DNA of 42,784 nucleotides from Candidatus Hodarchaeota archaeon (lineage in GTDB: Archaea > Asgardarchaeota > Heimdallarchaeia > Hodarchaeales > Hodarchaeaceae): contig JAEOTQ010000068.1 in NCBI GenBank assembly GCA_016839785.1, positions 1-42,784 of the forward strand, given 5' to 3'. Within the stretch, counting starts at the first letter, position 1. Each line of letters starts with the position of its first letter. Below, one piece after another: positions 7,514 to 39,099 of the stretch. The position numbers and the translations under genes are program-made. Under the pieces are notes generated by a model, which did not search any database, was not told where the DNA came from, and saw nothing but the letters and a program-made list of their open reading frames with translations.

Positions 7514-7530
7514 CCAATGAATTCTCTTTT

Positions 7531-9318: not shown

Positions 9319-9334
9319 AGAATCTCCCTCCAGT

Positions 9335-9844: not shown

Positions 9845-9896
9845 AAACCTCAATTATGATTGAATTTTCCCTTTTTATACTTGAAATACTAGACTG

Positions 9897-9917
9897 TACA
9901 AATTTTGGATATTTAAG
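9897..9917 (+). promoter_or_regulatory. Conserved 21-bp upstream motif, copy 3
   Basis: TACAAATTTTGGATATTTAAG, 19/21 identical to copy 2. Confidence 0.6.
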
Positions 9918-9966
9918 TCTCATTTACCTATACTAGATGAATACAATCAGAATAGGTGAATCATGA

Positions 9967-10194: not shown

Positions 10195-10211
10195 TCGAAA
10201 AAGAATCTTCT

Positions 10212-13376: not shown

Positions 13377-13379
13377 TCC

Positions 13380-15974
13380 TCAGTGTGATTCAAGTTCTTC
13401 TTGAAGCCTTTTTCCTTGTTTAAGCAGACTAAGGTGGATATCAAGAACTCCGATGTCAGGGTAAGTTTTCAACTCTAATGCCTTAGTGATGGATTGTAGT
13501 GCCACATATCTTTCGTTAGGCAAAAAATCATCAAGATTACTAGCAGTCACATCCGAAACACTAGGTAAAATTGGAGGTGAGTCTAATTTTGCATTTTTAG
13601 GCGCATTCTTTATGTTTCGAATATCCACCATTAATTCAGAACAAAGCTCATCAGCCAAAGAGAACAGCTGACGAAAGTCTTTTCCCTCAATTCCATCAAT
13701 CGCGAGCAAATCGGTATATTGGGCATATCGCTCCCACGGTATCGAATTGTTTCTTTGGTAGAGATGATGGAGAACTCCCCCAACCATATTTTTGATTTTA
13801 ACATTATCCTCACGACATTTCTGTACAGAAGCAGTTCTTTCAAAAAATCTCTCTGTATTTCTAATCTCCCATCGAGTTTGTTCAATTGTATTGGCATTTT
13901 TAGCCACTGGTAGATTTTCCAACATTGTCAAATGTAGATCGTAGAAGTCGGATCCTTTTACAGTAATATCCCATTGCCGTGCTGATCCAATTTCTACTTC
14001 TTTGAACAATCCATAGGATTTTAACCCATCTAGAAGCTTTTCTTGGGTACTATCAATATCCAATTCTTCGTGAAGTGCGTCTCTATATAACGTTTGATTC
14101 CTTAGAATTTTTAGGGTCTTCATTAACATTTTAAATTTTGTGGGACTTAATCCTAAAGTTTTCGATCCTCTTAATTGAGTTTCTTTGACCTTAATCGGAG
14201 CAAGATCAATTGGAACTTTTCCAGAATCCATTTTAAAATGATAGGCAGTACTTTGAGAAGTATCACCTCTGAATAATAAACCTTCACCCTCCCTAATTCC
14301 CATAATTTGGCGTTCGATGAATGAGGATTGCGTATACTCCCTAACTTTTAATTGGTGTTGGGTAATAACGATTTCCCGATCCGCCGTATTCACTAGTCGT
14401 AGGTAGATCTGATTCTTTATTTCTTCGAAAGAATTCACTTTCGTAGCTAATGCCTGGACACTTTGACTACCAAGAACAAGTACATTTTTTCGTGCAAGAG
14501 AATTACACGAGTCAATTAAAACTGTAGGAATTCCAGTTTGTCCTCTCCCATATGATGTTTTTCTGCTTAAAATTTCATCTGCATGAGGAAATATAATATA
14601 CCCGTTATAAGCTACATTAGATAAGAATTGAAGTAGAAATGCAACTACAGCTCGTTTAATCATAGGAGGTTGAGCTCCAAATTGAAAAATAGTAATTGAA
14701 TCATCTCGAAAAAGCATATTACTAAGATGTCCTGTAAAAGCTGGATAATTTACCTCATCAAATGATTTAAACTGATTTAAGATCCCATTTAAATGTTCAA
14801 TTGCCATCAAATCAGCAAAAACTCCATCCGTTGCCCCAATAGAGGGCTGTTCTACATCATCAGAAACCTCACCCAATGTCGTGACAACATCATTAAGAGT
14901 AAATGATGTTGAACCCGCTGCATTTCTAATTTGGGCTTCAAGAGGTATTGCAAATCGTGAAGTGAGATAATCAGAAGTTGATAATGAGCTTAAAAGAATA
15001 TTACTAACTAGATGAGCCTTCCAAGTATTTATAGCTTTAGATTCTTGTATTTTCCCACTCGGAGAGGAAGGTATAATGACATCACATAGATTAATAAACA
15101 TGTTTGTGCCCAATCGAAACAACTGAAGATTTATTCCCGTTTTAATAGATGAAAGTGATTGAAAATGGTGAATTAATCCATTAAATTCATTGTGAGTATC
15201 GATGACGAAAGTACCCTTATTTTTCGAATTGCTAAAGGAGAGAATCAAGTTCTGAAAAAGAGTGATTAATTCGTTTTTATCAGATCCACACACGAGAACG
15301 GATCCATTAGATAAAATAGGAAAGCCAACAGGTATTGAGACATTATCAATGCGATGACCAATCCTATGTGTTACAGGTAAATCAGGAACAGGGAAATCCT
15401 GAATAAAACGTGAAGGTACTCGTTCTAGGCTAAAGAATCTGTCAATCAACTTTGATGTGGATCCCGTTTGAGAGGGAAATATTGTGATTCCTTTTTTCGT
15501 CTTCTTTCCATGAAAATGGAGATCAAAAATCTGTTTTCCTTTAACAATCGTTACTTCGAATCCAGCTGCCTTGAGAATAGTATATGTAAGCGTACGTCGT
15601 TTAAGAAACTCATTTCTCACTTGGCGCACTATAGTAGGCAAAATTGACTCTGAGCGAATGTAAAAACGATAGTATACACGTACTATAAGGGAAAGCCCCG
15701 TATAGGAAGTTTCCCGCCTTGAATACGATTTTGAGTCTCGGGGAAGGGCAGTAAAAGCTTGTCGGAGAACTTGAACTCCAGGTTGACTCGTTACTCTGAA
15801 TAAGTTCTTAGAAGCGTTGTCTAAATCGTGGACTGGTTGAATTGCATAGTAGGAAACAAGAATTCCTATGGAAGCATACAGTTGTTCTGTTTCACTGGGC
15901 GAGTGGTCAATCTGAAGAAGAGTGGTATTATCCTCCAGAATTTTTGTTGCTAATTGTGTGGAAAGCGTTCCAAC
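13380..15974 (-). CDS. HerA/VirB4/FtsK-superfamily protein with degenerate Walker motifs and a C-terminal winged helix; reading frame open 111 codons upstream of the called TTG at 15641
   Basis: VIDTHNEF, LVLGSQS, NQIYLRLVNTAD and IREGEGLL match HerA landmarks; Walker A reads VLVCGSDKNE and Walker B reads YIIFPHAD; no in-frame stop between 15642 and 15974. Confidence 0.65.
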   Translation of the reverse strand, partial: VGTLSTQLATKILEDNTTLLQIDHSPSETEQLYASIGILVSYYAIQPVHDLDNASKNLFRVTSQPGVQVLRQAFTALPRDSKSYSRRETSYTGLSLIVRVYYRFYIRSESILPTIVRQVRNEFLKRRTLTYTILKAAGFEVTIVKGKQIFDLHFHGKKTKKGITIFPSQTGSTSKLIDRFFSLERVPSRFIQDFPVPDLPVTHRIGHRIDNVSIPVGFPILSNGSVLVCGSDKNELITLFQNLILSFSNSKNKGTFVIDTHNEFNGLIHHFQSLSSIKTGINLQLFRLGTNMFINLCDVIIPSSPSGKIQESKAINTWKAHLVSNILLSSLSTSDYLTSRFAIPLEAQIRNAAGSTSFTLNDVVTTLGEVSDDVEQPSIGATDGVFADLMAIEHLNGILNQFKSFDEVNYPAFTGHLSNMLFRDDSITIFQFGAQPPMIKRAVVAFLLQFLSNVAYNGYIIFPHADEILSRKTSYGRGQTGIPTVLIDSCNSLARKNVLVLGSQSVQALATKVNSFEEIKNQIYLRLVNTADREIVITQHQLKVREYTQSSFIERQIMGIREGEGLLFRGDTSQSTAYHFKMDSGKVPIDLAPIKVKETQLRGSKTLGLSPTKFKMLMKTLKILRNQTLYRDALHEELDIDSTQEKLLDGLKSYGLFKEVEIGSARQWDITVKGSDFYDLHLTMLENLPVAKNANTIEQTRWEIRNTERFFERTASVQKCREDNVKIKNMVGGVLHHLYQRNNSIPWERYAQYTDLLAIDGIEGKDFRQLFSLADELCSELMVDIRNIKNAPKNAKLDSPPILPSVSDVTASNLDDFLPNERYVALQSITKALELKTYPDIGVLDIHLSLLKQGKRLQEELESH

Positions 15975-15999
15975 TCAGCTCCAGAAAAAAAAGAGGGAG

Positions 16000-17016
16000 C
16001 TATTTCCCCGAATAGTCCCGGATTCCATCCGTATCGATAGAAAATTCGACTTTTCCATCAGGTAACTCTGGATTCTTGGTAAGAGTTGCAGTACGCTTTA
16101 CATCTTTTCCTTTACGAATCATGAGACGTGTAGTGACCGTGTGACCTACAACATTACCACCAATTGGTTTATTTGGATCTCCAAAGAACATAGCATCAGG
16201 TTTTGCCGAAACTTGGTTTGTTACCACCGCAACACAATTCATAATCTCTGATTGCTTTGCCATGAATGCCAAATATTTTCCAATAAGCTGTTGACGTTCA
16301 GCCAAGGTTGCTCTTCCAGCGAACTCTGAACGGAAATGTGCCATCAGGGAATCAACAATGATTAAACCTACATTGGGAACCATCGTTAAAGCCTCTTCTG
16401 TTAAAGCCATTTGATGTTCACTGTTGAATGCTCTTCCCACCGTTATCTGTGACAATATAGTATCAGGATCAAGATTAAGTGCTTTGGCCATTTGAGAAAT
16501 TCTTGTAAATCGGAAAGTTCCTTCAGTATCAATCCAAACTGCAGCTTTTCCATTTTTTACACAGTTTACCGCTAGTTGGTGCGAAATCTGTGTTTTACCA
16601 CAACCATTTTCACCAGCTATCTCAGTAATTGATCCAGTTTCGAATCCTCCTCCAAGTAGCTCATCGAATGCTTCAGAAGAGGTTGTTAAGTACTCACGTG
16701 TCTCACCTAGTTTCGCATAATGAGATCCAGGTTTTAATCCAAGATCAAATTGGGAACGAGCTTCTTGTATCAGTAAAGTTGCCGTTTTTTCAGCAATTCC
16801 TGATATTTCGGAGAGCTGTGATCGAGTAGCTAAGGCTATGGTCTCTTTAGAGCCAAAACCAGCTCCTTCTAGTCTTTTTCGTGTTGTTGGACCTATTCCT
16901 GAAATTGTATCGAGAAAGTTCGGCTCTTTTGTATCCTTTCCTCGGATTTTATTTCCTTTTTCGGGAATCGGGTCCTCAACAACAGTTTTTTCTTTTTTTG
17001 CTTCAGCTTTTGCCAT
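16000..17016 (-). CDS. radA: DNA repair and recombination protein RadA
   Basis: N-terminal HhH (ISGIGP), LLGGGFETG, GENGCGKTQ, WIDTEGTF, IIVDSLMAHFRSEF, LAERQQ, TNQV, PIGGNVVGH. Confidence 0.95.
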   Translation of the reverse strand: MAKAEAKKEKTVVEDPIPEKGNKIRGKDTKEPNFLDTISGIGPTTRKRLEGAGFGSKETIALATRSQLSEISGIAEKTATLLIQEARSQFDLGLKPGSHYAKLGETREYLTTSSEAFDELLGGGFETGSITEIAGENGCGKTQISHQLAVNCVKNGKAAVWIDTEGTFRFTRISQMAKALNLDPDTILSQITVGRAFNSEHQMALTEEALTMVPNVGLIIVDSLMAHFRSEFAGRATLAERQQLIGKYLAFMAKQSEIMNCVAVVTNQVSAKPDAMFFGDPNKPIGGNVVGHTVTTRLMIRKGKDVKRTATLTKNPELPDGKVEFSIDTDGIRDYSGK

Positions 17017-17084: not shown

Positions 17085-17169
17085 AAAATTGTTTATTTAT
17101 AAACTACTTATAAAGATCAGTTTCGAATATATAAGATGTAGATTCCCCTCATTACTGAGGGTCTTTCGA

Positions 17170-20100
17170 TTGTGGAAAAAAATTGAAACTGGATTAAGAA
17201 ATTCTTTATTATTTATTATACTTGGAATATTCGTTTTAGTAAATCTAGGTTTTACTCAAGTCATGGCTGCGGATCTAGAGACTTCGACAGCAGTATTAGC
17301 TGATAAAGGCAATGTGGGTTCAGGTGAGATAATTCACTTTTTAATGTGGACATACATGGGATTTGATTCTGTAGCATTTGGTCAAATCCGATTAACAGAC
17401 ACCTTTACAGGTGCATATATCACTACTACAATTACGAATGGCACCGCAACAGTCGATTGGCTTGTCCCTTCTCCCATTCAATCTGGTGAGCATATTTTTC
17501 TTGCAGAGTATCTGGGTTTTTCAGGCTATCTCCCTTCAAATGGATCTTGTGTTGTAATCTTTGAAGAGATTAGTCCAGGAAGTACTCGTTCCACCTCTTT
17601 GCTATTGGGCGTTAACTCTACAACCGTGTATAAGAATGCCTCAATTCATTTTACACTTACACTATTTATTCATTATAGGTGGTGGTTCCAGGGGGGATTC
17701 CTCACCGTAACTAATGTCAATCTGACTGGATCTCCAGTAATCTATACCTATGGACCGTTAGAAAACTATTATCCAGGAACGGATCCTGCAATCTTGACAC
17801 TTGAGTTTGATTATGAAATTCCTGTCTTTTCGGAAATTGGGGCTTCCCAATTTTATGCAAGTTATACTGGTAGTTCTCAGAGTCAAACAACTCCCTGTAG
17901 CTCAAATCTCGTTAATGTAACTGTTTTAAGTTCGGGTTACTGGCTAACTCAAGACATCAACGCAACAAAAGTTCAACGTACAGAAGAATCAGTGTTAATC
18001 AATACAACAATTCTTGGAGACAATCCTAGTGGATTAACGCTTTCCATTTTTTATAAAATTGACATAAAACAGATAATAATTGCAAAAAAAGTGGTAGTCG
18101 ATCGAAATATTCGTACTTTGTTTTTTCCTAACAGTTCACTACCTTTAGGAGACCTCATAATCTTTACTGAGCTAAGAAATGAAATTTCTGACGATTTGTA
18201 TGCTAATACTTCATCATCTACCACCATACAGGATCGTGCAAGGATTCAGTCTTATTTAAATTCCACATATTATAGGCAAAATGAAACAATTCTTCTTGAA
18301 GCCTACATTACACTAGAAGATATCCATACTGTTCCCGTGATATGTCAGGTTGAATTGAGAGATTTAACAGAAGGAAATATTTCATTAATGAATAAATCTA
18401 CTAACTCAAATGGATTTGTCTCATTTACTTATTCTTTAACAGAAGATAATACCGTTGGAAACCATGAATTCGTCATAGCGATATTCGATCTTGAACCAAA
18501 TATTCTCAAGGTTTCTACGAGTATTCTTGTTCCAATAAAAGGATTAATCGAATTTGATTTGACATACGAAAGTGGGGGAATCCTTCGAAACACGAATACT
18601 CAGATAGAAGTGACAGTATTATCCGGGGGAATAGTAATTAACGAAGGACTAGTCTCATTTATGTACAACAATTATACTATTATTGACACTCAAAGTTGCA
18701 TTGCAGGATTGGTCTTTAATTATTACATAAGTCATGATCATCCCTTAGGTGATACATATCTCCTTATCGCCTTTCATGATTAAGATAATTATGATGAAGA
18801 GATTACTACATTCAAAATTACTGTGCTTTCGGTTCCTCATTTTGATTCGCTTAATCAAAACTCAACAGAACTGAGTAAAGGACAATCAGGAAGGTTTTGG
18901 GGATATATCTTAGACGAGGATGGAGAGGCCGTAATTAATGAAGTTATTCACTTTACAGACACTACAATTGGGGAATATCTAGGGTTTGTGCTTTCTGATG
19001 CAGAAGGCCTGTTTTTCTACGATTATCTTGTTTCTGAAACCTCCCAAATAGGAGTACACATCATGCAATGTGATTATCAAGGAAATATCGGGGCTTTCTA
19101 TTTACCGACAGTCAACCCAAGAATTTTTTCGATAATTGTTCGTCCTGCTCTGTCACTAATGGTTGAGGAAGTACTACTCGCCAATCACTATTCTGTTCTA
19201 GAACTCAAAGGTGGGTTGAATGAAGACATATCTCTACATTGGCAACGAGATGGTTCAGCAGTTTGGGATTTCATTGCTGTTGTTTCCTTGAATGCTTCTG
19301 GAATTGGAAACTATAATTGGACAACACCTTACTATAAGGGTGGGTTATCTTTACGTGCTTCGAATTTGAATAATACGAGTTTTAAGTTTGATCATACGTT
19401 CATGTATAGTATTGCTAATATTGAAGTTATTGGGGATGGCATTGGGAATGTCAATAGTGATTATCATTTTACGATTAATTGTACAGAAATTTATCAGATT
19501 TGGATAGATGGTCTTTTATGGAAAGACTGGATTCCCTCAGGAAAGCATTCATACTTATACAGTTTCAGTAGTAGGGGAATAAGGGAGATTAGTATTATCA
19601 GTAATGATACATATGTCTTCTACAAGGTCTATCAGCATCAAGTTACTATATATGAGGATCTAATTGTTTCTGTCAGTGTTCCTCAAGAAGCTCTTGTAAA
19701 TTTGTCAATTAATATTGACGGTACTGTGATCGGAGAAGTATCAGGACCAATAACTGGGATAGATGCAATTCTCCAAATAAATGAGGTGGAAAGAGAGATT
19801 GATTCTACAAATGGTGCGGGAATGTTTGATTTTTTAATTTCATTCGACCATCCCGGAATCTATACAGTATCGGTAAAGGTGCCTTTACAAATTGAAGATT
19901 ACTATAATACCTCATTTAGTACTCAATTTTCTATTATAATCCATTCTCTTCCCTCTAATATCGAAATCATCTCCCCCACAAATAATTCTAGTTATGGAGC
20001 AATAATAGAACTTTCTTTTCATGGAGATGCTGAGAATTATTGGTATTTTATTGAACCTCTTGATCTTATGAACACTTCATGGGTTGATACGGTTTATCGT

Positions 20101-21984
20101 GAATTACCTGAGGGTGATTACACCTGTCATGTATATGGAGAGAATTCCTATGGTATCTTATCTTATGCTTCCTCATCATTTCGAATAGATATTACTGCGC
20201 CTTCATTAATTGTTACCAGTCCAAGAAACGAGTCCTATAATACGAATACTGTGTTACTTTCGTATTTAACTAATGCAGATGATGTAAGAATATTTCTAGA
20301 CGGCAGTACAATCATCAAAAGTTCAGGTACAAGTTTGACAGAATTATCAGAAGGAGATCACAACTTAACTATCCTTGTTAGGGATACGGTAGGTAATTTC
20401 GTACTAAGGTCCTCCATTTTCAAGGTTGATACAGTTGCCCCATTTTTAACAGTGTATTCTCCCTATAATCGTAGCTACATTGAGAAGGTACCTTTGACCT
20501 TCGATTCAGATGGTCAGCTAGTCCTTTACTATATTACAGATGTTCACAGTACTAATCTAACTTTTAAATCTTCTATACAACTGTATTTACCGATTGGAAG
20601 TTATACACTCAATATTTATTCTTTTGACTCAGCTGGAAACGTTAAAACAGAGCAAATTGATTTTTCTATGGTCGAAAAGATTGACCTTTTAGTTAACTCC
20701 CACCTCACTGTAGTAAATCCTGCTGGAAATTACCTTCTAAGTACAGAGATATTATCCAACCCATATTTCGATCAAGTTGGTTTTTACTTGAATGGGAGTC
20801 ATTTCGGATTATTAACCTGGGATCCCTTTCATCAGGATTATCGAATTGCCCTTCAGTTACCCTCTCCAGGCAATTGGGAAATAAGCCTGTATGCAAGAAC
20901 AATAGATGAGAGGTATGATTTCAGAGAATTTCTTGAAATCTGGTCTCCGCCGAAGCCAATTATCACTTCTCTGTCGGTTTCATGGGAATCAAATTATTAC
21001 GAATTGAGAACAACGATTGATTCACAGTCTCTTGATCTTGATCTTGTTCAAATCTCACTAGATGAGACGAATTATAGTTTAAACAATTTTTTCGGAGATC
21101 AATGGTATGTACAAGTGTATATTAATCCACAAAATTATACTCTTAACTTAAATATATGGTATCCGTGGGATAACGAACCCTCGATAAGTAAAGAATTTGA
21201 TATTCTGTGGTATGCACCTCAAATTATTGTTGTAGACTCACATTTTGAAAGAAATGGGTTCGATTTAGAAATACGTATTGAGAAGGTAAACGCATCAATT
21301 TCTAACGATATCCCAGTAATGATATTAGAGGGCCTACCTCGAAACTACTCTGTTAACGGAAACTTAGTCTATGAATCAGCAATTGGAAGTTACCAAATAT
21401 GGCATTTCACATCCCCATGGCTAGCCCCTGATATGTGGAACTATAGTCTATCTATTTCTGATATCTATGGACAGTCTAACCAGTTTTTTGGCGTTTTCAA
21501 TTCAACAGATTCTCCACCAGAGATCGGCGATTTATCTCTAACAATTTTAGATAATACATCAACAGGGGTTTTATTTCGTATATCTGTCCAAGTCATTGAT
21601 GATTATGCTATTAGTGATGCGATTCTCTATATTAATGGTGTAGAATATTCATTCACTTTGATAAATGATTCATACATAACTCTTGATTTCTTTCTAACTC
21701 CAGGTTTATACGTTCTCCATTTATCTGTGGTAGATGATGTAAATCATGAAACTGCTAAGTGGTTAACTAATTTACATATCCAGAGTACGACTAATCTAAC
21801 CACTACTTCTGAACTAATCGATTTGACTAATCAGTCTACCCAAACGTCTCATAACTATACTCAACAAGAAGTAAAATCGCCTTCAGGTGTTAGTGGTCTA
21901 GTTGAAGTCGGTTTAGGCACAAGTTTATTTGCTACTCTTGTCGCTCTCGCTAATTCAATATTTCGAAAAAAGAGGTCTGAGTAA
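17170..21984 (+). CDS. Large (~1600 aa) secreted, C-terminally membrane-anchored Ig-like repeat surface glycoprotein, interrupted by one in-frame TAA at 18781-18783
   Basis: The two track ORFs are in the same frame, separated only by TAA. Signal peptide follows TTG 17170; beta-rich repeats (IDITAPSLIVTSP, VDTVAPFLTVYSP, DSAGN); many N-x-S/T sequons; T/S linker, TM helix and RKKR tail. Confidence 0.75.
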
Positions 21985-23618: not shown

Positions 23619-24065
23619 ATGATAATCTCTTCTCAACCTTCTTTAGTTTCACCTCGTCCAAATGTCTTGATAGGGGATTATGACTCTTGTCTACACTTCA
23701 TTATTGAGAATAAATATGACGAATGGGTAGTTCCCAACCTCTTATGGATCGAGTATCGTGTAATTCCATTATCTTTTTTCTATCAGATCTCCCATCAACA
23801 TCCTAACTTGAATAGTAGTTTGTACTTCTTGGAGATGCTGTCATTCGAGGATTATAACAAAATTCTCGGTTCAAATATGCTTTCAACATTACATAAAGAT
23901 GGATTTGGATCACTGATAGTGAATTATCCTCACTTTTTTACTAACAACCATGAAAACTGGGCATTCCTCAAAAAATTGGCAAGCTCTTTGGTAGTTACTG
24001 TTATAGTTCCCAAAGATCTGTTTCCATTAGAGGAATGCACCCAAATTGTAGTTAATTCACCATGA
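23619..24065 (+). CDS. Minimal, degenerate RecA-fold-like protein
   Basis: Order of segments NVLIG, LLWIE, LYFLEMLSFED, GSLIVNY, LKKLASSLVVTVIV parallels the RadA core; no GKT. Stop overlaps the next ATG (ATGA). Confidence 0.5.
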   Translation: MIISSQPSLVSPRPNVLIGDYDSCLHFIIENKYDEWVVPNLLWIEYRVIPLSFFYQISHQHPNLNSSLYFLEMLSFEDYNKILGSNMLSTLHKDGFGSLIVNYPHFFTNNHENWAFLKKLASSLVVTVIVPKDLFPLEECTQIVVNSP

Positions 24066-24763
24066 GAACCACAGTTCAATTGAAAAGTTTCCAATGTATG
24101 AATGACGAACTCGAAACTTCTCATAAAATTCCAACAGGTATGGATATTATTGATAATCTTCTAGGGGGCTTTTTTGCAGGACATATTCATTCGATTATAG
24201 GTGAATCTGGAGTCGGAAAATCCTGGTTATGTCAAAGAGTTGTTAACTCACTCCTTGAATATGATCAGAATGCTAGTGTTCTTTATTCAGATTTTTCGGG
24301 CAATATTCGGTTAAAAAATCTCAAGAAATCGTTGAAAAAAACTGAATTCATGGAACAGGTTCATTTCTACCGACCCTCTTCTCTTCTAGAGAATGTTATT
24401 TTCTGTAAGAAAATTCTTGATGGACAACTTCCAAATATTTCCCTGTTAATCTTAGACACGGTATTTGGATCCCCTATGCAAGTTTACGAGCTATTGGGCA
24501 GATCTAAGAAAAAATGGGAACGAAATATTTTTCTTTTTATGTTAGATCTCAGAAAAATTGCTATTACTAAAAATATTCCCATTCTCATTTCTCACCATGC
24601 ATCTTCCAATAACATAAAGAAAATAAAGGGTGAAGAAGATCGAATAGACCCTTTCTGTACAACAAAATCTGTATTACAAAAATCTGGTCAAGTATCTTCC
24701 CTAAAGTTTTACGTCTATAATCAATACTTGGGCTCAACAACTTTTAAATTGTTTTCAGAGTGA
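24062..24763 (+). CDS. RadB/Rad51-paralogue RecA-family ATPase without an N-terminal domain
   Basis: IPTGMDIIDNLLGGF, GESGVGKS, VLYSDFSG, LLILDT, LRKIAITKNIPILIS. Confidence 0.85.
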   Translation: MRTTVQLKSFQCMNDELETSHKIPTGMDIIDNLLGGFFAGHIHSIIGESGVGKSWLCQRVVNSLLEYDQNASVLYSDFSGNIRLKNLKKSLKKTEFMEQVHFYRPSSLLENVIFCKKILDGQLPNISLLILDTVFGSPMQVYELLGRSKKKWERNIFLFMLDLRKIAITKNIPILISHHASSNNIKKIKGEEDRIDPFCTTKSVLQKSGQVSSLKFYVYNQYLGSTTFKLFSE

Positions 24764-27326: not shown

Positions 27327-28664
27327 CTAAATTGGGGTAATTTCTTCTGATTCCTCTAAGTTGATATCAGCTAGAAGCCTAGGTTTAATCTTAAAATACC
27401 GGTCTTCATAGTTTACCAAGTCAGGTAACTTGAGTGATACAATTGTCTTTACTGTGTGGGTCAATGCTTCCTCAGCATCAAGCTTAATCCATGGTAAACT
27501 CTTATTTTCAACACGTTCAACATTTAATAATGGTAATAATGAGTGAAAGCTAGATCGAAAAGGTAATTGGAATTCATAGGTTTCTTCTGCGCCTAAAAAC
27601 CAAACTCGTTTATGATGTAATTGATTTTTCCTATCAGAAACTGTAATCAAAACGGGTATATGATCCATCTGAGGTGGAAGAGCTGAAATAGTAATTAATG
27701 CCGAAAATTTCTTTTTTCCTTTCTTGGAAACCTTCATTTCACAATGCCATTCTGGAGCTGGTTCTTTATTCAACCATCGGTTATAAAACTCCTTCACCTG
27801 AGAAAAATATTCATCTGGCCAAGTATCTCGAATCCCCCCTGTTGGGAGAAGAGCGCTTTCAACCCAAAGCTGCTTAGGTTTGTATAAAGAGGTAAAGTTT
27901 CGAATAATATTCTGATTGGGTTGATCTTTGTGATCAAAAACTGAAATGAGAAATGTAGGGCAGGAATGGAGCATAGATAGAGAATGATGTCTATCCCATC
28001 TAGTCCTCCACAGAAATGGCCAGAGTAATACTCGTGTCAGAAATCTGAAGAAAGAGACACCAAAACCAGAATAGGGTAGATTACATGTAATTAACGTACT
28101 TAAAGGGATAGGTCCATTTTCAAGGATAACTGCTTTTATTGGTTGGTCTTTTACCAAAGCACTCGCCAATAATGTACTAAGTGATTCGCTATATATTGCA
28201 ATTTTCCGTTTGTCAAGATTATCTCTGGAGATAAGATATTCGTATGCTTTTATGATCGTTAAAGTGTAATATCTTGGGGAATAGTTCTTTTTTAGGAGAA
28301 GTCGAGTTGACTCATCAATGATATGAATAACGGGGAGTAAAACATTGAACCCCATTAGTTGCAGTACTCCAGATGTTTTCAAACTATTTTCAAACGAACG
28401 CTCATTAATCCAATCAGGGATCATGAGAATGGTGGAATCATTTTCTTGCTTGCTGGGAAAGAACCAGGCTTTTTGCAATTTATCTTTGACAGGAAAGGAA
28501 ATCGGGATGGCTTCTAGGCCAAAATCACTCGGAAGATTCACAGGAAGATCCTTCCGTGCAGTAAAATAGATATAGAGATACGGGATGATCTCGGTACGAC
28601 GAATAATAATGACTAAGCAGATCAGTAGAATAAAGACTACTCCAAGCAATAAAGGATCAACCAT
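27327..28664 (-). CDS. Membrane-anchored alpha/beta-hydrolase-fold protein with a degenerate nucleophile elbow
   Basis: N-terminal TM; LQKAWFFP, GFNVLLP, AYEYL..LDKRKIAIYSESLS, IKAVILEN, PTFLI, PKQLWV. Confidence 0.7.
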   Translation of the reverse strand: MVDPLLLGVVFILLICLVIIIRRTEIIPYLYIYFTARKDLPVNLPSDFGLEAIPISFPVKDKLQKAWFFPSKQENDSTILMIPDWINERSFENSLKTSGVLQLMGFNVLLPVIHIIDESTRLLLKKNYSPRYYTLTIIKAYEYLISRDNLDKRKIAIYSESLSTLLASALVKDQPIKAVILENGPIPLSTLITCNLPYSGFGVSFFRFLTRVLLWPFLWRTRWDRHHSLSMLHSCPTFLISVFDHKDQPNQNIIRNFTSLYKPKQLWVESALLPTGGIRDTWPDEYFSQVKEFYNRWLNKEPAPEWHCEMKVSKKGKKKFSALITISALPPQMDHIPVLITVSDRKNQLHHKRVWFLGAEETYEFQLPFRSSFHSLLPLLNVERVENKSLPWIKLDAEEALTHTVKTIVSLKLPDLVNYEDRYFKIKPRLLADINLEESEEITPI

Positions 28665-29182: not shown

Positions 29183-29293
29183 TTAAGTTTTCCACGCTTT
29201 TGCAATTTTTTTTCTACTCTTCTCATGATTCTATACTTGATTGAAGGGCAAAACTGACTTAAATGAATGCACTGAAAAGATGTGTGGATAAGT

Positions 29294-32200
29294 ATGAGTG
29301 ACCAAGACAAGGAGCAAAAATCCACTTCATCGTTATTGGAAAACGAAACGTTGGAAAAGATTGCAATAAAACTTTGGGGGTATTTTATACAGTATCGACT
29401 TCTGGTATTAGTAGGAGCACTTGCTTTTTGGGTAAAAATAGCCTACGCACCGTCAATTGATATGTGGGATGAAGGATGGTTTGTATCTATTGCATCGAGA
29501 ATTGCTGACGGTTTATCCGATCCTTTTCTGCCCTTATATTATAGGGGGGATGATCAAGTCCTTCAACTCTTTGATAAACCTCCATTTGCTTTTATTTTTG
29601 GTGCGTTGCTTATGACTATCTTTGGTAAAAGCACCTTTGGAGCAAGTGGTCTAAATGCAATCGGTGGGGCTGGTCTTGCAGTTGTAATTTACCTTTTATT
29701 CAGTCATCAGAAGGAGAATAAAAGTGCGCATGTGATTTCAGGTCTGTTGATTGCACTCGCTTCCTTCCTCACATTCTACTCTCGAACGGCATATATTGAC
29801 CCATTTGTAATTTTCATGGGAAGTTTGGTATTATTAGCAGGGATCCGTGCTATTGATGCAATCTTTGTTGATAATGACCTTAAGAAAGGGTTTATTTTGA
29901 TTGTAATAACAGGTATCCTGAATATACTCAATGTTATGACTAAAGCTTGGCAAGGTATTCTAATTGCCCCCTCTATTGCCCTTTACCTAGTTTTTAGATA
30001 TACAGAACGGCATGTCAATTTCTCTCACTTGAAACCAGCATTGCAAGAGATCCGTGAATTATTTTCTCTCAATCTTTCAAAAGAAGAAAAAAATAAGACG
30101 TCTTCGAATAAAGAAGTTGGTTCCTTTCCGTATCTCATATTTTTACTTTCTCTGACGGTCTCATTTGTAGTTTGTTTTTTTTACAATCAACTACTTGTCT
30201 CTGGGATAATAATTGCGATTTTCAGCGCGTTTACATGCTATGCAGTATTCTTAAGATTTTGGAAAATGGAGTTAATTGAAAATAAGATTAGTATTTCAAT
30301 ATCTGTTGGCCTTTCAGCGGTTATGGCGTCTTTCGCTGGTAGTATTGCCGTATCGATGTTTTATAATAGGTTAGAAGAACCTTTCAGAGGATTTGCAACA
30401 GCAATAGGCTCGAATGATGTCTTTACTGGTATATTTTCAGGAATCCTTTCTTTTGCCTCAGAAGAAGCACTAGGTAATGAAATTATCACATTAACTTTAT
30501 TGGAAGTGATTAGTGGATTAATCGGTTCGATCATCACAATTCTTCTTGCATTGGTGATTTTAGGACTCTTTTTGGATTTTTTTTCCACCGATCGAGCATT
30601 TGTCAGTTTTTGTTATGAACTAGTCGACTGGATACCTTTAATGATAATGGGTTTATGGTTACTGTTTTGGTTCGTAGGATTACTTCTGCTTGGACTTGTT
30701 TTTGAGCGAGATGCTATACAAATTACCTTATTTGGTATAGCATTCTCTTTGTTACTCATTCCCCTTTTAGTCTATTATCCACATCTAAAGAATGGTATTA
30801 TAAGATTCTTTAATTTAAAGGCAAGAATTCGCTCTCAAACTGAGCTTTCAATTTTTTCCTGGCATATTCTGTTTATAGGATTTACCCTTATAGTAATAAT
30901 TTCCAGCTTTTATCCTTTTATTGCCTGGGTCCAATATATCGATGCCAACATCCCCCCAAATGGAACATTTCCGGTTATACGGACGCCAGGAGAGCTAGTT
31001 AAAGACCCAAATAGACCTAATGTTATCACAATGACTTTCTTATTTTTTGAATACTATATTGGATGGCGATACGCGTATGGCACAAAGTACAACCTTGCTG
31101 ATAGCTTAGGAGGTGCCATAGGTGATTACGCGCTGATTGTGATGTTACCCTTTGTAATAATTGGATTATGGGCATTTTTCTTTTCAGAACATAGGAATCC
31201 AGCATTAGGCTCCGCCCTAATTACATGGTTACTTGTTATCCCCCTCGTCTTTTTCCCTGCTATGTTTCAACTAAATTACTATTACATTCCCCTTGTGATT
31301 CCATATTTTGCTATAGCCGCGAAAGGATTCGAATACATTTACTCATCTGAAAAAATGCGATTATTGGCTATTGATAATGTGGAAAAAGCACTTGCAGGAG
31401 GATATTTTTTTCTAGAGATTGGCTACTCTTTCGTGGTATTTCCCATCAGGATTTTTATAGATAATGTCATTGCATTCCTTTTTGGGGGTGAATCGTTCTC
31501 TTATCTTCTTGGGAGTATTGATACTTTATTTAAGAGTCTCTTTGTGGCAGGCATCTATCTTATACCATTTATTTTTCTGTCTTTCTATGTTCTAAAAACG
31601 TTCCCAGGAATCATTACTGCGGGGTTTGCGTATAAATTCTTTATCGATGCCTGGTTTAGGGGTGGGAGTGGGTTGTATCGATTATACGACTATATATTTC
31701 ACGATTTCTTTGATTTTCTTGTAGATTTGGATTTCTCATGGGTTGGAAAAGTCATGGAGTTTGGAGCTCCTTTAGCAACTTTTGTTGGACTAGTATTACT
31801 CATAATAGGGTTGTACTGGCTAAGACCAAAGATAAAACCTCAACTTACCATACTTCTTGCCCTTTCTTTGTCAGGAATGCTAATAAATGTCTCCACTCAA
31901 ATTCATTACAATCAAATCTTCGATCTTCGGTATCAGGAGATGGCTATTTATATTAATAATCATGGTGGGGATTATAACTATAGTACATGGGCAATTCACG
32001 AGACAGGTACCCAGTTTGCTCTCAGATATTACCTTGAACATGAAGTGTTGAATACAATGAAGTATCCATTTACCACAAATTCCTCAATAGCAGTTCATTC
32101 ATACTTTACAAATAATTATCCGAATGTCTCATTTTGGGTAATTGTGAATCATACTGGCCATTGGTGGGACCCTGAAGAAGGATCTGGAGTGCCACCGTAT

Positions 32201-32365
32201 GCGGAAATGTATCCTGAAGCCTATAAATGGTTTAGGACGAACCCAAATTTGATATGTGTAGATGAAATTGTAGGCTTGACTACTTGGCATAAAATGCACT
32301 TGTTTGTGAATAAAACTTGGATTGTAGAAAGAGGGTATAACTGGAAAACCTTGTCAGGAAAATAA
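29294..32365 (+). CDS. Large GT-C fold glycosyltransferase (ArnT/PMT-like)
   Basis: WDEGWF, FDKPP and SRTAYIDP motifs; more than 15 TM segments; start 29282 or 29294. Confidence 0.8.
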   Translation: MSDQDKEQKSTSSLLENETLEKIAIKLWGYFIQYRLLVLVGALAFWVKIAYAPSIDMWDEGWFVSIASRIADGLSDPFLPLYYRGDDQVLQLFDKPPFAFIFGALLMTIFGKSTFGASGLNAIGGAGLAVVIYLLFSHQKENKSAHVISGLLIALASFLTFYSRTAYIDPFVIFMGSLVLLAGIRAIDAIFVDNDLKKGFILIVITGILNILNVMTKAWQGILIAPSIALYLVFRYTERHVNFSHLKPALQEIRELFSLNLSKEEKNKTSSNKEVGSFPYLIFLLSLTVSFVVCFFYNQLLVSGIIIAIFSAFTCYAVFLRFWKMELIENKISISISVGLSAVMASFAGSIAVSMFYNRLEEPFRGFATAIGSNDVFTGIFSGILSFASEEALGNEIITLTLLEVISGLIGSIITILLALVILGLFLDFFSTDRAFVSFCYELVDWIPLMIMGLWLLFWFVGLLLLGLVFERDAIQITLFGIAFSLLLIPLLVYYPHLKNGIIRFFNLKARIRSQTELSIFSWHILFIGFTLIVIISSFYPFIAWVQYIDANIPPNGTFPVIRTPGELVKDPNRPNVITMTFLFFEYYIGWRYAYGTKYNLADSLGGAIGDYALIVMLPFVIIGLWAFFFSEHRNPALGSALITWLLVIPLVFFPAMFQLNYYYIPLVIPYFAIAAKGFEYIYSSEKMRLLAIDNVEKALAGGYFFLEIGYSFVVFPIRIFIDNVIAFLFGGESFSYLLGSIDTLFKSLFVAGIYLIPFIFLSFYVLKTFPGIITAGFAYKFFIDAWFRGGSGLYRLYDYIFHDFFDFLVDLDFSWVGKVMEFGAPLATFVGLVLLIIGLYWLRPKIKPQLTILLALSLSGMLINVSTQIHYNQIFDLRYQEMAIYINNHGGDYNYSTWAIHETGTQFALRYYLEHEVLNTMKYPFTTNSSIAVHSYFTNNYPNVSFWVIVNHTGHWWDPEEGSGVPPYAEMYPEAYKWFRTNPNLICVDEIVGLTTWHKMHLFVNKTWIVERGYNWKTLSGK

Positions 32366-32377
32366 CCATTTGAAGGG

Positions 32378-32719
32378 ATGCCTACGTATCGAGATTTATC
32401 ACAGCTAATCTATGAATGTAATTTTGATTACTCATCAAATTCGAAGGGCCCCGCTGATTTACAATTTTTGGATGAGACTTTACGAGATGGATTGCAATCA
32501 GCCAGCGTTAGACACCCGTCGCTTGAGGAAAAAGCCCAAATTATTCGTCTTATGGAACAACTTGGAATAAATAGTGTAAACCTCGAAATGGCGTTTGCTT
32601 CAACAAAATTTCACGAAGATGTGGTGGGACTTGCTCAAATAATTCCCCAAGAAGAGCTATCTATAAAGACTATACTGAAACACACATACTACCTGAATTA
32701 CTCGAACGATAAAAGGTGA
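32378..32719 (+). pseudogene. N-terminal fragment of a DRE-TIM synthase (2-isopropylmalate/homocitrate synthase-like)
   Basis: LDETLRDGLQS..SLEEKAQIIRLMEQLGI motif but only 113 aa; the next gene starts immediately. Confidence 0.75.
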
Positions 32720-32724
32720 ACATA

Positions 32725-33003
32725 ATGGTTAACAAAGTAACTGCACGACACATTCTTGTAGATAAAAAAACACTGGCCGAAAATATCATTGAAGAAATTA
32801 ATGCTGGGGCAAAATTTGAGGAAATGGCTCGTAAGCACAGTACCTGTCCATCAAAGAAAAAAGGTGGGAATTTAGGAGAATTTGGTAGAGGCGCCATGGT
32901 AAAAGAGTTTGAAAAAGCTGCATTTGCGTTACAAAAAAATCAAATGACCCAAATCCCTGTAAAAACAAAATTTGGGTATCATATCATAAAACGAACAAGA
33001 TAA
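32725..33003 (+). CDS. ppiC: Parvulin-type peptidyl-prolyl isomerase
   Basis: ARHILV, SKKKGGNLGEF, MVKEFE, KTKFGYHII; AGGTGA before ATG 32725. Confidence 0.92.
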   Translation: MVNKVTARHILVDKKTLAENIIEEINAGAKFEEMARKHSTCPSKKKGGNLGEFGRGAMVKEFEKAAFALQKNQMTQIPVKTKFGYHIIKRTR

Positions 33004-35701: not shown

Positions 35702-35718
35702 AGTGAGAGTGAAGAATA

Positions 35719-36963
35719 CTGTCAGAGACAAAACAAATAGAAGTTAATGTATATGGAGCCAATTGGTGTAGTGACTGTAAACGCACAAAAAAATATCTAG
35801 GAGAGCAACGAATCCACTATGGGTGGTTTGACATTGAAAAATCGGATTCTGAAGGGGAAGAAGCTTTACAGTTTGTGTATGACACGAATGAAGCAATTTT
35901 TGGAACAAAAAAAAGAAAAGTCCCTGCAGTTGAAGTAATCAAGGATGGAGAACGAAAATTATTTGTGGAACCCTCCAATTATGAGCTGGCAAATTTCCTA
36001 GGTTTAGCAACACAAGCAAAAAAATCCTTTTATCATACTGTAATAATAGGTGCAGGACCAGCAGGGCTAACTGCCGCGATTTATCTAGCAAGAGATGGTT
36101 ATGATGTGTTGGTAATAGAACAGTCAACGATTGGAGGGCAAGCCTTCATAACAAATAGATTAGATAATTTTCCCGGATTTCCAGATGGTATTACGGGTGC
36201 GGACTTTGCAGAGAATGTTAGACGACAAGTCGAACGCTTTGGAGTCGAAATCCTTTCCCCTCAAAAAGTACAAAGTATTGGAACTTGTCATCCTGGTGGG
36301 ACATTTGATGAGTGTCAGTATAAAGTCGTTAAAACTGAAGCCCAAGAGTTTACCTGTTCTACTGTTCTTGTTGCGACAGGATCGAATTATCGTCAACTAA
36401 CTGTTCCTGGATCAGATGCACTACTTGGTATAAATATCCATTATTGTGCCACTTGTGACGGATTTTTCTACAAAAATAAGAAAATTTTTGTAATAGGAGG
36501 AGGAAATAGTGCCTTTGAAGAATCTCTCTTCTTAAAAGAAAAATTCGCAGACCATGTGACGATTATCATTCGTAGAGAAGAACCACAGGCATCTCCCGTT
36601 TTGCAAGAAAAAGTAAAAGATAAGGAGGGGATTGATGTTTGGGTGAATACAGAAGTAGTGGAGCTTGTAGGCGAGGATAGTTTAGAGGCTGTTAGAATTA
36701 AACATACCAATACTGGAGAAGTAAAAGAGTATCATCCCGATGGAATTTTCGTTTTTATTGGATTGTCACCCAATACTAAATTTCTGAAAGGAGTAAGTTT
36801 AGATCCCCTAGGTTTTATTACAACTTCTCAACAACAATCGTCAGTAAAAGGCATTTTTGCAGCGGGTGATTGTCGCTTAGGATCAGTTAAACAGGCTGTG
36901 GCCGCTGCAGGTGAAGGAGCTGCAGCTGCTATCGCTATTCGGGAATACTTGAGTAATACCTGA
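35719..36963 (+). CDS. trxB: Glutaredoxin-like domain fused to thioredoxin reductase; probable CTG start 52 codons upstream of the called GTG
   Basis: In-frame extension LSETKQIEVNVYGANWCSDCKRTKKYL; TrxR motifs GAGPAG, CATCDG, GGGNSA, AAGD. Confidence 0.85.
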   Translation: MSETKQIEVNVYGANWCSDCKRTKKYLGEQRIHYGWFDIEKSDSEGEEALQFVYDTNEAIFGTKKRKVPAVEVIKDGERKLFVEPSNYELANFLGLATQAKKSFYHTVIIGAGPAGLTAAIYLARDGYDVLVIEQSTIGGQAFITNRLDNFPGFPDGITGADFAENVRRQVERFGVEILSPQKVQSIGTCHPGGTFDECQYKVVKTEAQEFTCSTVLVATGSNYRQLTVPGSDALLGINIHYCATCDGFFYKNKKIFVIGGGNSAFEESLFLKEKFADHVTIIIRREEPQASPVLQEKVKDKEGIDVWVNTEVVELVGEDSLEAVRIKHTNTGEVKEYHPDGIFVFIGLSPNTKFLKGVSLDPLGFITTSQQQSSVKGIFAAGDCRLGSVKQAVAAAGEGAAAAIAIREYLSNT

Positions 36964-37167
36964 GTATTTCTCTCTCTCTTTATTTTTTGTCGAGTTACTC
37001 CTAAATAATTTAAGAGAGACTTTCTTCTTTGGACAAATAAATACAGTTTAATATCGAAAATTCTCTCTCTACGGGTTTTTATACCAACAATTCTATTTTC
37101 AATTAGAAACACAGTACTTAGTGTCTTTTTGGGTTTCTAAATATATAAGTCGAAACAGGAATCATGG

Positions 37168-37326
37168 ATGATGAAAATGATTGATACAGAATCAATAAAC
37201 CTAAGCAATCTAAATGAAATACTCGCTTATCTGAAATACCAGGGTCCTCTATATTTACGTAGAATCGAAGAGTGTCCCCCAATTCCTCCCAAAATATCAT
37301 CCTCTCCTCTATCTAATTTTGTGTAA
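37168..37326 (+). CDS. Small protein A (52 aa), YLxYxG family
   Basis: MMKMIDTESINLSNLNEILAYLKYQGPLYLRRIEECPPIPPKISSSPLSNFV; TATATAA at 37142-37148. Confidence 0.65.
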   Translation: MMKMIDTESINLSNLNEILAYLKYQGPLYLRRIEECPPIPPKISSSPLSNFV

Positions 37327-37479
37327 GATTTGATCAATAGTAAATATAGAGGTTTTGTGACTTTCTTTGTTATGTGCAAATGGATCTGAATATCTTTTTT
37401 TGAAGTAGGTGGCATTTTCTGTTGGTACTACTAGGGTATCACAGAGATTAATATATCCCTCTAGATCAAATATTCTAAT

Positions 37480-37635
37480 ATGGCACGTCCTTTACTACAA
37501 CCATCACAAGAACGACTACAGTCAACTATCGAATATCTCAATTATACTGGCCCCGTGTTCACGAGCGTTCGCAGTGAACTAAGTACAGACGATACGAAAA
37601 GCTCACTCAAAATTATTGGTTCGTCTGCGTTTTAA
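37480..37635 (+). CDS. Small protein B (51 aa), YLxYxG family
   Basis: MARPLLQPSQERLQSTIEYLNYTGPVFTSVRSELSTDDTKSSLKIIGSSAF; TTAATATAT at 37448-37456; pyrimidine tract downstream. Confidence 0.7.
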   Translation: MARPLLQPSQERLQSTIEYLNYTGPVFTSVRSELSTDDTKSSLKIIGSSAF

Positions 37636-37809
37636 TTATTTAAGTCGGATCAAGAAGACTCTCAACGGCAATGCCATACCCTTAATCCTTTTCTCCTTTT
37701 TCCTTTTTTCTCCTAAGAAGCTCTAAGAAGGATCCCTAGTGTGTGATATTCTGGAAATGTTATGGGAATATAAAAAGAAGGTCTGAGGTGATACAACTAG
37801 AGGAACTAA

Positions 37810-37977
37810 ATGACTTCACAACCAGTGGAAAACTCTGACGAGCGGCTAGCGTTAATTCACCAAGAAACTCGTCTTCGACTTACATTAGAATACCTAAATT
37901 ACAACGGCGTTCTATATACTCAAAATCTCATTCCCACAGTTAAATCTCCAGAGAAAGTTGATCGGTCTGCCGCTTAA
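37810..37977 (+). CDS. Small protein C (55 aa), YLxYxG family
   Basis: MTSQPVENSDERLALIHQETRLRLTLEYLNYNGVLYTQNLIPTVKSPEKVDRSAA; TATAAAAA at 37769 and GAGGA at 37800. Confidence 0.7.
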   Translation: MTSQPVENSDERLALIHQETRLRLTLEYLNYNGVLYTQNLIPTVKSPEKVDRSAA

Positions 37978-38121: not shown

Positions 38122-39099
38122 TTACCACGGTGGGAGATAAACAGGGTGAGTTCTCGGTTTATTATTTAGAACTTCTTCTACTTGTTCAAGGGTTTGGCTA
38201 TCCAGAGTGATGTCAGAGGCTGCAACGTTAGAAACTACATGAGCTTCTGAGGTGGCTCCAGTAATTGCACAGGATATTTCGCTCCGACGTAGAATCCAAG
38301 CAAGGGCTAATTGACCAACAGTAATATCTTTATTCGCAGCTATCTCTTGCAAACGACGAACTTTCGCTAAATTATCTTCAGTCAAATCTCGTTGAATGAA
38401 ATTACTTGTGGTTGCACGGCTTCCCTCGGGTGTTCCATCATTGTATTTTCCAGTTAAAACTCCTTGAGCTAAGGGTGACCAGCAGACAACACCAATACCA
38501 TTGCGATCACAGGTCTCCATTATATCTCGTTCAATGTATCGGTCCAACATGTTGTAGCGCGGTTGTTCTACACGAGGAGGATGTAATCCAAGCTCTTTTG
38601 CCATCCAAACAGCACGTTCTAGTTGAACAGCTGGCCAGACAGATGTTCCCCAGTAGTGAACAAGTCCTTGATCAACCAAGTCTGACATTGCACGAAGAGT
38701 TTCTTCGAGATCAGTATGATAATCAAATCTGTGTGCAAAGTAAATATCCAAGTAATCTGTTCCAATTCGCTCTAAAGACCTGTCAATACTTTCCATAATG
38801 TGCTTGCGAGAGAGTCCGCGATCATTGATTCCATCAGACATTGGCCAGAAAACTTTACTACTAATTACTAGATCTTTTCTGTCATAATTTTCGTTGGCGA
38901 TTACTTTCCCAACCACTTCTTCCGCTTTTCCTCGAGCGTAGACATCAGCAATATCTATAAAGTTTACTCCCAATTCCACGGCTTTTGCAATACAAGTTTG
39001 GGCACCCTGTTCTTCTACGGTTCCACCGTAGGTTAACCAGGCACCTAAACTAATTTCACTTATCTTTATTCCAGTACGACCCATTTGACGATATTTCAT
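38122..39099 (-). CDS. Aldo/keto reductase (Kv-beta/Tas-like)
   Basis: ISLGAWLTYG, DIADVY, ISSKVFW, DIYFAHRFD, WSPLAQGVLTGKY. Confidence 0.93.
   Translation of the reverse strand: MKYRQMGRTGIKISEISLGAWLTYGGTVEEQGAQTCIAKAVELGVNFIDIADVYARGKAEEVVGKVIANENYDRKDLVISSKVFWPMSDGINDRGLSRKHIMESIDRSLERIGTDYLDIYFAHRFDYHTDLEETLRAMSDLVDQGLVHYWGTSVWPAVQLERAVWMAKELGLHPPRVEQPRYNMLDRYIERDIMETCDRNGIGVVCWSPLAQGVLTGKYNDGTPEGSRATTSNFIQRDLTEDNLAKVRRLQEIAANKDITVGQLALAWILRRSEISCAITGATSEAHVVSNVAASDITLDSQTLEQVEEVLNNKPRTHPVYLPPW

Follow-up and report, generated by a model that had tools for sequence, protein, structure and literature searches.

Do three very short open reading frames (ORFs) that lie in a row in an Asgard archaeal contig encode proteins, do these proteins belong to a known family, and what might the segment that they share be doing? 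The window, by which we mean the whole 42,784-nucleotide stretch analyzed here (Candidatus Hodarchaeota archaeon, GenBank assembly GCA_016839785.1, contig JAEOTQ010000068.1, positions 1 to 42,784), contains the ORFs A, B, and C on the plus strand and in one common frame, between a thioredoxin reductase (TrxR)-like gene and an aldo-keto reductase gene. A preliminary description of the window had proposed that the three form a new, truly coding microprotein family. We find it nearly certain that A, B, and C truly code for proteins of a family not described before, and we tentatively read their shared segment as a docking element that folds on binding.

Three paralogous genes share one short module

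Gene A (37168..37326) encodes 52 amino acids from its first ATG, gene B (37480..37635) 51 amino acids, and gene C (37810..37977) 55 amino acids. The three have in common a core of ~15–25 residues, L-x3-[LI]-x-Y-L-x-Y-x-G-[PV]-h-[YF], with the shared module located at 37210..37254 in A (LNEILAYLKYQGPLY), 37516..37560 in B (LQSTIEYLNYTGPVF), and 37873..37917 in C (LRLTLEYLNYNGVLY). The positions and core sequences are exactly those given in the preliminary description, and the relationship drawn from them there is supported by pairwise BLASTP (E = 1e-6 for B and C, 5e-4 for A and B, and 4e-4 for A and C) and by hhalign comparison of profiles of the orthologue groups. The A, B, and C profiles align at 93–96% probability (96% for A versus B, 93% for A versus C) over only 22–23 columns, and 22–25 columns align at 93–96% across group profiles overall.

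The three paralogous genes share only this module, which comprises the end of an amphipathic helix, the segment Y-L-x-Y-x-G, and then three or four residues of the [PV]-h-[YF] type. The invariant or nearly invariant positions are one leucine of the helix, [YF]-L-x-Y-x-G, and the hydrophobic/aromatic pair after [PV]. The likeness had been said to be clearer in protein than in DNA, and this is so: the paralogue cores have 24–25 of 45 nucleotides in common, with matches at 10–11 of 15 sites at codon positions 1 and 2 and at only 3–5 of 15 at position 3, and therefore it is the protein sequence that carries the likeness. Across all six reading frames of the window, the pattern [AE]YL.Y.G turns up three times, always within the trio; 50 shuffles of the window gave a mean of 0.06 occurrences and a maximum of one, a figure that is merely descriptive because the pattern was derived from the same ORFs.

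The proteins end in ...NFV (A), ...SSAF (B), and ...RSAA (C). Their tails, described at first simply as unrelated, are indeed unrelated between paralogues but are conserved inside each orthologue group, with ...SLKIIGSSA[FY] kept among B orthologues and ...DRSAA among those of C. The tail of protein A is rich in proline, serine, and threonine, and protein C has the longest N-terminal helix of the trio.

Related loci and evidence for coding

A scan of 185,579 species genomes produced 14 pattern matches, six of them confirmed by tblastn, which yielded five related loci (L001–L005) from four metagenome-assembled genomes (MAGs): B3_Heim, MAG_8 (twice), YT1_021, and YT2_004. The array of the window (W) was compared alongside these. 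Orthologues of all three genes were found, those of A in L001–L005, and the order A-B-C is kept in all five loci, of which L002 stops after B and L005 starts within A. These last two belong to MAG_8, in which the array is present on two contigs and is broken inside or next to the array (at the contig end in L002 and the contig start in L005). The two MAG_8 copies differ slightly, in B by three synonymous and four nonsynonymous differences, and look like a strain mixture or an assembly break from paralogous repeats.

The related loci bear on where the proteins begin. The ATG of gene A that is kept in all loci is at 37177, giving a protein of 49 amino acids (MIDTES...), and this is probably the true start because L004 lacks an ATG at both upstream positions. 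For gene B, the open frame in L003 (924–1208, plus strand) extends upstream as far as an ATG from which the protein would have 94 amino acids; the 51-amino acid start is likely because this extension is not kept in the other loci.

Ratios of nonsynonymous to synonymous substitution rates (dN/dS) were calculated by the Nei-Gojobori method, per gene and per region, and are 0.05–0.24 in most pairs across the trio. Gene A has values of 0.055–0.23 (10 pairs), with 18, 6, and 32 variable columns at codon positions 1, 2, and 3, respectively; gene C has values of 0.048–0.244 (10 pairs; 13, 6, and 32 variable columns). The range for gene B is 0–0.445 (15 pairs; 10, 9, and 31 variable columns), the two highest values coming from pairs with just seven differences. 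The calculation by region pooled the six pairs among W, L001, L003, and L004, L002 and L005 being near-duplicates of L001 or incomplete. Values for the module, tail, and N-terminal part are 0.008, 0.26, and 0.13 in A; 0.058, 0.14, and 0.20 in B; and 0.017, 0.18, and 0.20 in C. The shared module is under extreme purifying selection, and the tails are under weaker but real constraint. In a four-way DNA alignment, 57% of columns are invariant in A, 51% in B (a value lowered by a misaligned 3' end), and 68% in C. Outside the ORFs, the invariant fraction is 11% in the A-B spacer, 15% downstream, 36% upstream, and 44% in the B-C spacer.

Could the three be chance ORFs over a conserved noncoding or regulatory region, or reflect conservation of the opposite strand? 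They are short, and an ORF of 60–62 amino acids lies opposite gene A. This explanation does not accommodate the excess of synonymous changes and of third-position variation in the plus-strand frame, frames that are open in all loci although the synonymous rate (dS) reaches >1, protein-level relatives that reach down to about 30% identity, or the lack of any Rfam match between 36800 and 38300 (E-value mode). It is refuted as far as sequence can refute it, and we find it barely credible. The substitution pattern indicates that A, B, and C are protein-coding genes under purifying selection. A structured noncoding RNA was rejected as a candidate as well; in addition to the Rfam result, no stable RNA fold was found in the stretch after B (37615–37720, z = 0.05).

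Size, distribution, and subgroups of the family

A 16-sequence profile searched against 1.84 billion representative proteins recovered 12 relatives at E <= 1e-3 (three at <= 1e-10), all 48–60 amino acids in length, and none beyond these at that threshold. A 25-sequence profile searched against a word-indexed set of 5.8 billion clusters gave 43 proteins at E <= 0.1 among 892 candidates, with lengths of 40–94 amino acids. Searches of genomes and proteins, with profiles or a hidden Markov model (HMM), had been proposed as a check on the family; those made here gave five loci and 49 distinct proteins, 40–94 amino acids long. Nine of the 43 word-indexed rows carry an organism name: five Hodarchaeales, one Hodarchaeota, two Heimdallarchaeota, and one Hermodarchaeota. 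Judged by these named rows, the family appears so far only in Asgard archaea. Some relatives are annotated as 'hypothetical protein' in public records.

One common core expression fits 48 of the 49 proteins. By the signature that follows the glycine, they fall into group A (GPLY[LY]R, 23 of 49), A' (GPLF[IL]R, 4 of 49), B (GP[VI]F[TS]S, 8 of 49), C (GV[LV]YT, 9 of 49), and D (G[VI]VFYRD, 5 of 49). Cysteine is absent from 40 of the 49. The D type, a fourth type of paralogue in which proteins of 82–94 amino acids begin with the module, consists of an N-terminal module, a linker of ~30 residues, and, in its full-length forms (89–94 amino acids), a CxxC-x17-CxxC pattern. The latter are P0032, P0042, and P0043, which are encoded on other contigs and not in the window; P0021 and P0044 look like truncated versions. 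The D-type tail matches no family in Pfam, PADLOC, or PHROGs, and its cysteine pattern suggests a putative Cys4 Zn-ribbon-like domain.

Several pairs of family members appear to share one contig, as judged by contigs of equal length and, for P0025 and P0033, by neighboring locus tags too, and therefore clustering is not confined to close relatives. In each complete locus the family HMM picks out exactly three copies; its run over 1707 segments, from six-frame translation of the window and the loci, gave no further member (next best E = 1.2). None of 8000 scored candidates of 106–2000 amino acids reached E <= 1 as a longer fused form, which is weak evidence on this point.

Comparison with known families and systems

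Searches of A, B, and C against Pfam-A, NCBIfam 20.0, PADLOC 2.0 (0 families), PHROGs 4, and PDB sequences returned nothing significant, the best weak rows being Sec20 (E = 0.19, protein C, Pfam) and one PHROG (E = 0.032). In the ESM Atlas there was no usable match for C, and A matched only unnamed clusters at 0.90–0.91 with low shared-feature counts. A search of the literature on small proteins of Hodarchaeales and other Asgard archaea and on ribosomally synthesized and post-translationally modified peptides (RiPPs) in Heimdallarchaeia found no account of the family; the passages concerned in PMC13635244 treat hydrogen cyanide (HCN) synthase, not the trio peptides.

As a sequence family it would appear categorically new, no described family having been matched. 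Lineage-restricted orphan small proteins as such are common, including in Asgard MAGs. The preliminary description had named a lack of homologues, a lack of coding-type conservation, and a match to a known family among the grounds for giving up its proposal. Each was looked for and none was encountered, and the proposal of a new coding family stands.

A defense or toxin-antitoxin component or a phage component was rejected as an identity for the trio: PADLOC and PHROGs gave no significant match, tblastn of C against 50,697 phage records gave no match, and neither did tblastn of A against 72,556 plasmid records.

PDB sequences were searched with the family profile, four subgroup profiles (A, B, C, and D), and one D-type protein. 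The rows obtained are at chance level: Elongin C (E = 0.27), VP30 (2.9), RuBisCO small subunit (1.2), a lectin (1.1), and Cas12a (1.0). Yeast Elongin C (PDB 1hv2) has an ...EYLNYN... helix in which 11 residues are nearly identical to the family consensus; like the family module, this stretch is an amphipathic helix with two tyrosines. The resemblance deserves mention only because Hodarchaeales are discussed as close relatives of eukaryotes. However, the whole sequence scores E = 0.27 and the stretch by itself 1.8, and the second matched piece is not collinear. Unlike Skp1/BTB proteins, A, B, and C have 49–55 amino acids, half of a BTB fold (~95 amino acids or more), and they match neither Skp1_POZ nor BTB of Pfam at E <= 10. 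The subgroup profiles each gave different weak best PDB rows or none, and none of the four recovered the Elongin C match. The lead was dropped because the PDB rows differ between profiles, and we regard the resemblance to Elongin C/Skp1 as coincidence.

A tandem array of genes of ~50 codons with conserved N-terminal and divergent C-terminal parts resembles arrays of RiPP precursors such as the prochlorosins, in which a shared leader is followed by diverse cores and the enzyme may be unlinked. On this analogy, the N-terminal module of A, B, and C would be a leader for an enzyme encoded elsewhere, and the tails would be the cores, to be modified and then set free. Serine, threonine, and proline are frequent in the tails, and Y-x-x-P in A and B is reminiscent of the lasso-peptide leader motif. 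The combination of conserved leader and divergent cores is present in the trio, but this feature is not specific to RiPPs. No modifying enzyme had been noted next to the trio, and this holds more widely: the 34 window ORFs of at least 90 amino acids (all searched against Pfam, and the 19 left without a convincing family against NCBIfam) include no RiPP-type enzyme, RiPP recognition element (RRE) or PqqD domain, peptidase, or exporter, and none was seen among the ORFs listed for L001 and L004 within their ±6 kb flanks. A double-glycine (GG/GA) or other conserved leader-core cleavage motif was not found in the group alignments. Conserved modifiable residues were not found either; the tails do have serines and threonines, but their positions are not fixed from group to group, and most members, as noted above, have no cysteine. 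Unlike RiPP cores, the tails show conservation from orthologue to orthologue, and in one type of paralogue a putative Cys4 domain takes the place of a short core. Only ~10–20 residues precede the module. Types A, A', and B have Y-x-x-P, whereas the C and D types lack its proline and have Y-x-G-V/I instead. We judge it quite improbable that the trio are RiPP precursors. It is improbable too that a new Asgard RiPP class with an unlinked enzyme uses the module as its recognition leader, in which case the A, A', B, and C types would form a precursor library.

A lasso-peptide precursor in particular, which has a Y-x-x-P leader motif and a threonine at position –2 and depends on a B enzyme (RRE/protease) and a C enzyme (lactam synthetase), was rejected: the motif is missing in the C and D types, and neither enzyme was found in the window.

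Three further comparisons concern small proteins. Pup is a small disordered protein that forms a helix when bound to Mpa. It is similar in size to A, B, and C and mostly disordered, with one helix-forming stretch as its conserved segment; unlike Pup, the family shows no sequence relation to it, lacks a C-terminal GGQ/GG, and belongs to another taxon. A ubiquitin-like, SAMP, or Pup modifier was rejected, the C-termini having no GG, Pfam and NCBIfam giving no match, and AlphaFold2 predicting a single helix. The mu-proteins, small zinc-finger proteins with two CxxC motifs that have been studied in haloarchaea, resemble the D type in having fewer than 100 amino acids and two CxxC pairs. Unlike them, A, B, and C of the window have no cysteine pairs, and the D-type tail is without a family match.

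Predicted structure of the module

AlphaFold2 models protein C (25-row alignment) with a mean predicted local distance difference test (pLDDT) score of 75.6. The model has a single helix at residues 9–28, with block mean pLDDT values of 84 and 94 for residues 11–30, and no other secondary structure. The helix ends at ...LEY, right before L-N-Y-N-G. Structure prediction, also proposed at the outset, accordingly yields a single confident helix that runs into the motif, and disorder elsewhere; the tails, which are mildly acidic, are predicted to be disordered. A prediction of the A+B+C complex with an alignment of its own for each chain scored 0.02 against a mark of 0.32, with controls not run, and speaks neither for nor against such a complex. 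The D-type protein was modeled from a 5-row alignment at a mean pLDDT of 40.9, which is unusable.

About 20 constrained residues and one helix cannot form a stable domain, and therefore the segment may be taken to order against something else. That something else could be another copy of the module. In such a case the module would serve for oligomerization, and A, B, and C would assemble into a homo- or hetero-oligomer that displays three tails, for example with helices packed against a small intermolecular sheet, the complex itself being the functional unit. Consistent with this are the three genes in fixed order in all complete loci, the alternating and heptad-like hydrophobic positions of the module together with its three invariant or nearly invariant aromatic/glycine positions, and the inability of the module to fold alone in the AlphaFold2 model. 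Direct support is absent, however; a D-type paralogue and A-type members on other contigs mean that the module is used outside the trio; and the genes have separate promoter-like boxes instead of being tightly coupled in translation. Self-assembly seems to us unlikely.

We prefer to read the module as a fold-on-binding docking element because it is too short to fold alone. On binding, it would adopt a helix, a glycine turn, and a short strand, and would anchor each paralogue to one common partner. The tails would then give different outputs, as P/S/T-rich in A, ...KIIGSSAY in B, ...DRSAA in C, and putatively Cys4 in the D type, such that A, B, and C would act as a set of small adaptors or regulators. 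The apparent re-use of the module in front of the D-type Cys4 tail fits an interaction element. Of the two functions first suggested for the trio, then, structure and the putative Zn-ribbon fusion lean toward docking, while the peptide precursor is left without support from an enzyme, a cleavage motif, or modifiable residues. In a bolder form, a Hodarchaeales-specific docking motif might plug at least four small effectors, one with a Zn-ribbon, into one machine.

Several points weigh against docking. All that the monomer model shows is that the module does not make up a fold by itself. The Zn-ribbon reading is drawn from the cysteine pattern, the D-type model being unusable. The related loci are close relatives in which neighboring proteins are highly similar, and conserved synteny therefore says little about function; in L003 the upstream neighbor already differs. 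All told, a docking module with paralogue-specific tails is a possible mechanism that we hold tentatively, at somewhat less than an even chance.

Conserved noncoding blocks around the trio

Each ORF was initially credited with its own TATA-like box. This is plausible, with conservation that is clear before C, nearly so before A, and weak before B. The A/T-rich box before A (37139..37148) lies 20–29 nucleotides upstream of the A ATGs and is nearly conserved in the five loci that cover the position (W, L001, L002, L003, and L004). The A/T-rich box before B (37447..37456) is 24 nucleotides upstream of the ATG; the other loci have an A/T-rich box at the same place, weakly conserved in sequence. 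Before C, in an A/T-rich box at 37767–37776, the TATA box TATAAAAA (37769..37776) is identical in 4 of 4 loci and located 34 nucleotides from the ATG. The archaeal TATA box has a usual spacing to the transcription start, and the box-to-ATG distances therefore argue for leaderless or short-leader mRNAs, probably from separate promoters. Gene B mRNA, with its box 24 nucleotides upstream, would be leaderless or nearly so, and it is plausible that the boxes serve as promoters of A, B, and C. In L001 and L002, where the A-B spacer is only ~75 nucleotides long, A and B may be co-transcribed. A sigma-70 promoter and hairpin-terminator scan found nothing above shuffles, these models not being applicable to an archaeon.

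Runs of at least seven columns outside the ORFs that are identical in 4 of 4 loci occur at 37067–37073, 37075–37083, 37425–37431, 37652–37660, 37746–37755, 37769–37776, and 37800–37808. The BRE/TATA-like block CTCTACGnGTTTTTATA (37067..37083), identical in W, L001, L003, and L004 and located 94–110 nucleotides upstream of the A ATG, may be a distal promoter. Directly 3' of B is a noncoding block (37640..37660, with 37652–37660 identical in the four loci) of which no further copies were found in the window. It is followed by a C/T-rich tract (37687–37714) that looks like an archaeal oligo-T terminator. Before C is the block ATATTCTGGA (37746..37755), identical in 4 of 4 loci; for the longer block that runs to the TATA box (37746–37776), other copies in the window are all at least three mismatches away. 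The blocks at 37640–37660 and 37746–37755, both between B and C and kept in every locus that extends over them, give no sign of RNA structure and may be sites for a regulator of gene C. GAGGAACTA (37800..37808), directly before the ATG of C and identical in 4 of 4 loci, is Shine-Dalgarno-like and would function as such.

Genomic neighborhood and the rest of the window

The window is archaeal and AT-rich, with 32–41% G+C in 1-kb windows. Upstream of the trio is the TrxR-like gene (35875..36963, plus strand), and downstream the aldo-keto reductase gene (38122..39099, minus strand); the neighbors as a whole are a glutaredoxin (Grx)-TrxR fusion, the aldo-keto reductase, a flavodiiron protein, HtpG, and a second TrxR-like gene. 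In L001 and L004, the ±6 kb flanks, whose genes were named by reading the sequences and from window orthologues, encode thymidylate kinase, a 604-amino acid membrane protein, acyl-CoA dehydrogenase, Grx-TrxR, the aldo-keto reductase, the flavodiiron protein, HtpG, and a TrxR-like protein. The order of the trio and the flanking genes is conserved among related genomes.

These redox and stress neighbors suggest, weakly, a role in stress physiology. The link is weak because synteny is seen only among close relatives and the upstream neighbor in L003 differs. A specific form of it would make A, B, and C small, hydrophilic, stress-induced disordered protectants or chaperone helpers that are co-expressed with the redox and heat-shock neighbors and have no specific docking partner. 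The conserved Grx-TrxR, aldo-keto reductase, flavodiiron protein, and HtpG genes and the largely disordered, mildly acidic tails would suit this, but a module dN/dS of 0.01–0.06 and invariant tyrosine and glycine point to a specific contact and not to bulk physical chemistry. With synteny limited as it is, we consider protectants very unlikely.

Two neighbors are irregular. A glutaredoxin/NrdH-like CxxC segment (…VYGANWCSDC…) at 35713–35874 is in frame with the TrxR-like ORF at 35875, and no ATG, GTG, or TTG occurs between the preceding stop and 35875; the orthologues, with 415 (L001) and 413 (L004) amino acids, have ordinary starts. An unusual start codon, a sequencing error, or a recent truncation could account for this. 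The flavodiiron protein gene is split in L004 (7998–9226, minus strand) into ORFs of 139 and 199 amino acids by a frameshift, as a pseudogene, or through an assembly error, and is intact in the window (408 amino acids), L001, and L003.

Elsewhere in the window, a run of DNA-repair-type genes (4754–17016 and 24062–24763) comprises a DEAD-box helicase with an MrfA Zn-binding domain (4754–7513), a weak Hef-nuclease-like protein (10212–11642), an XPD/DEAD_2 helicase (11622–13376), RadA (Rad51/RadA-type recombinase, 16000–17016), and a RadB/KaiC-like ATPase (24062–24763). The large ORFs at 13380–15641, 27327–28664, and 29282–32365 match no family at all. Two large proteins of 564 and 1053 amino acids (17089–21984, plus strand), with only weak matches to bacterial Ig-like domains, are probably surface proteins. 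A 113-amino acid ORF (32378–32719, plus strand) matches only the first ~67 of the 260 positions of the HMGL-like profile and could be a fragment of a gene; next to it comes a gene for a small parvulin-type peptidyl-prolyl isomerase (32716–33003).

Implications

Small proteins are often missed or left as 'hypothetical' in Asgard MAGs. The trio is a case with unusually clear functional evidence, namely three genes in a fixed array and a segment of 15 residues whose dN/dS is near 0.01. Its relatives are found only in the Heimdall/Hodarchaeales branch, which is discussed as the closest to eukaryotes. With 49–55 amino acids, its members are compact and easily synthesized targets for work on binding, structure, and expression. 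If the module were a leader peptide, the family would constitute a new RiPP class in Asgard archaea; if it is a docking motif, its receptor would reveal a lineage-specific regulatory hub.

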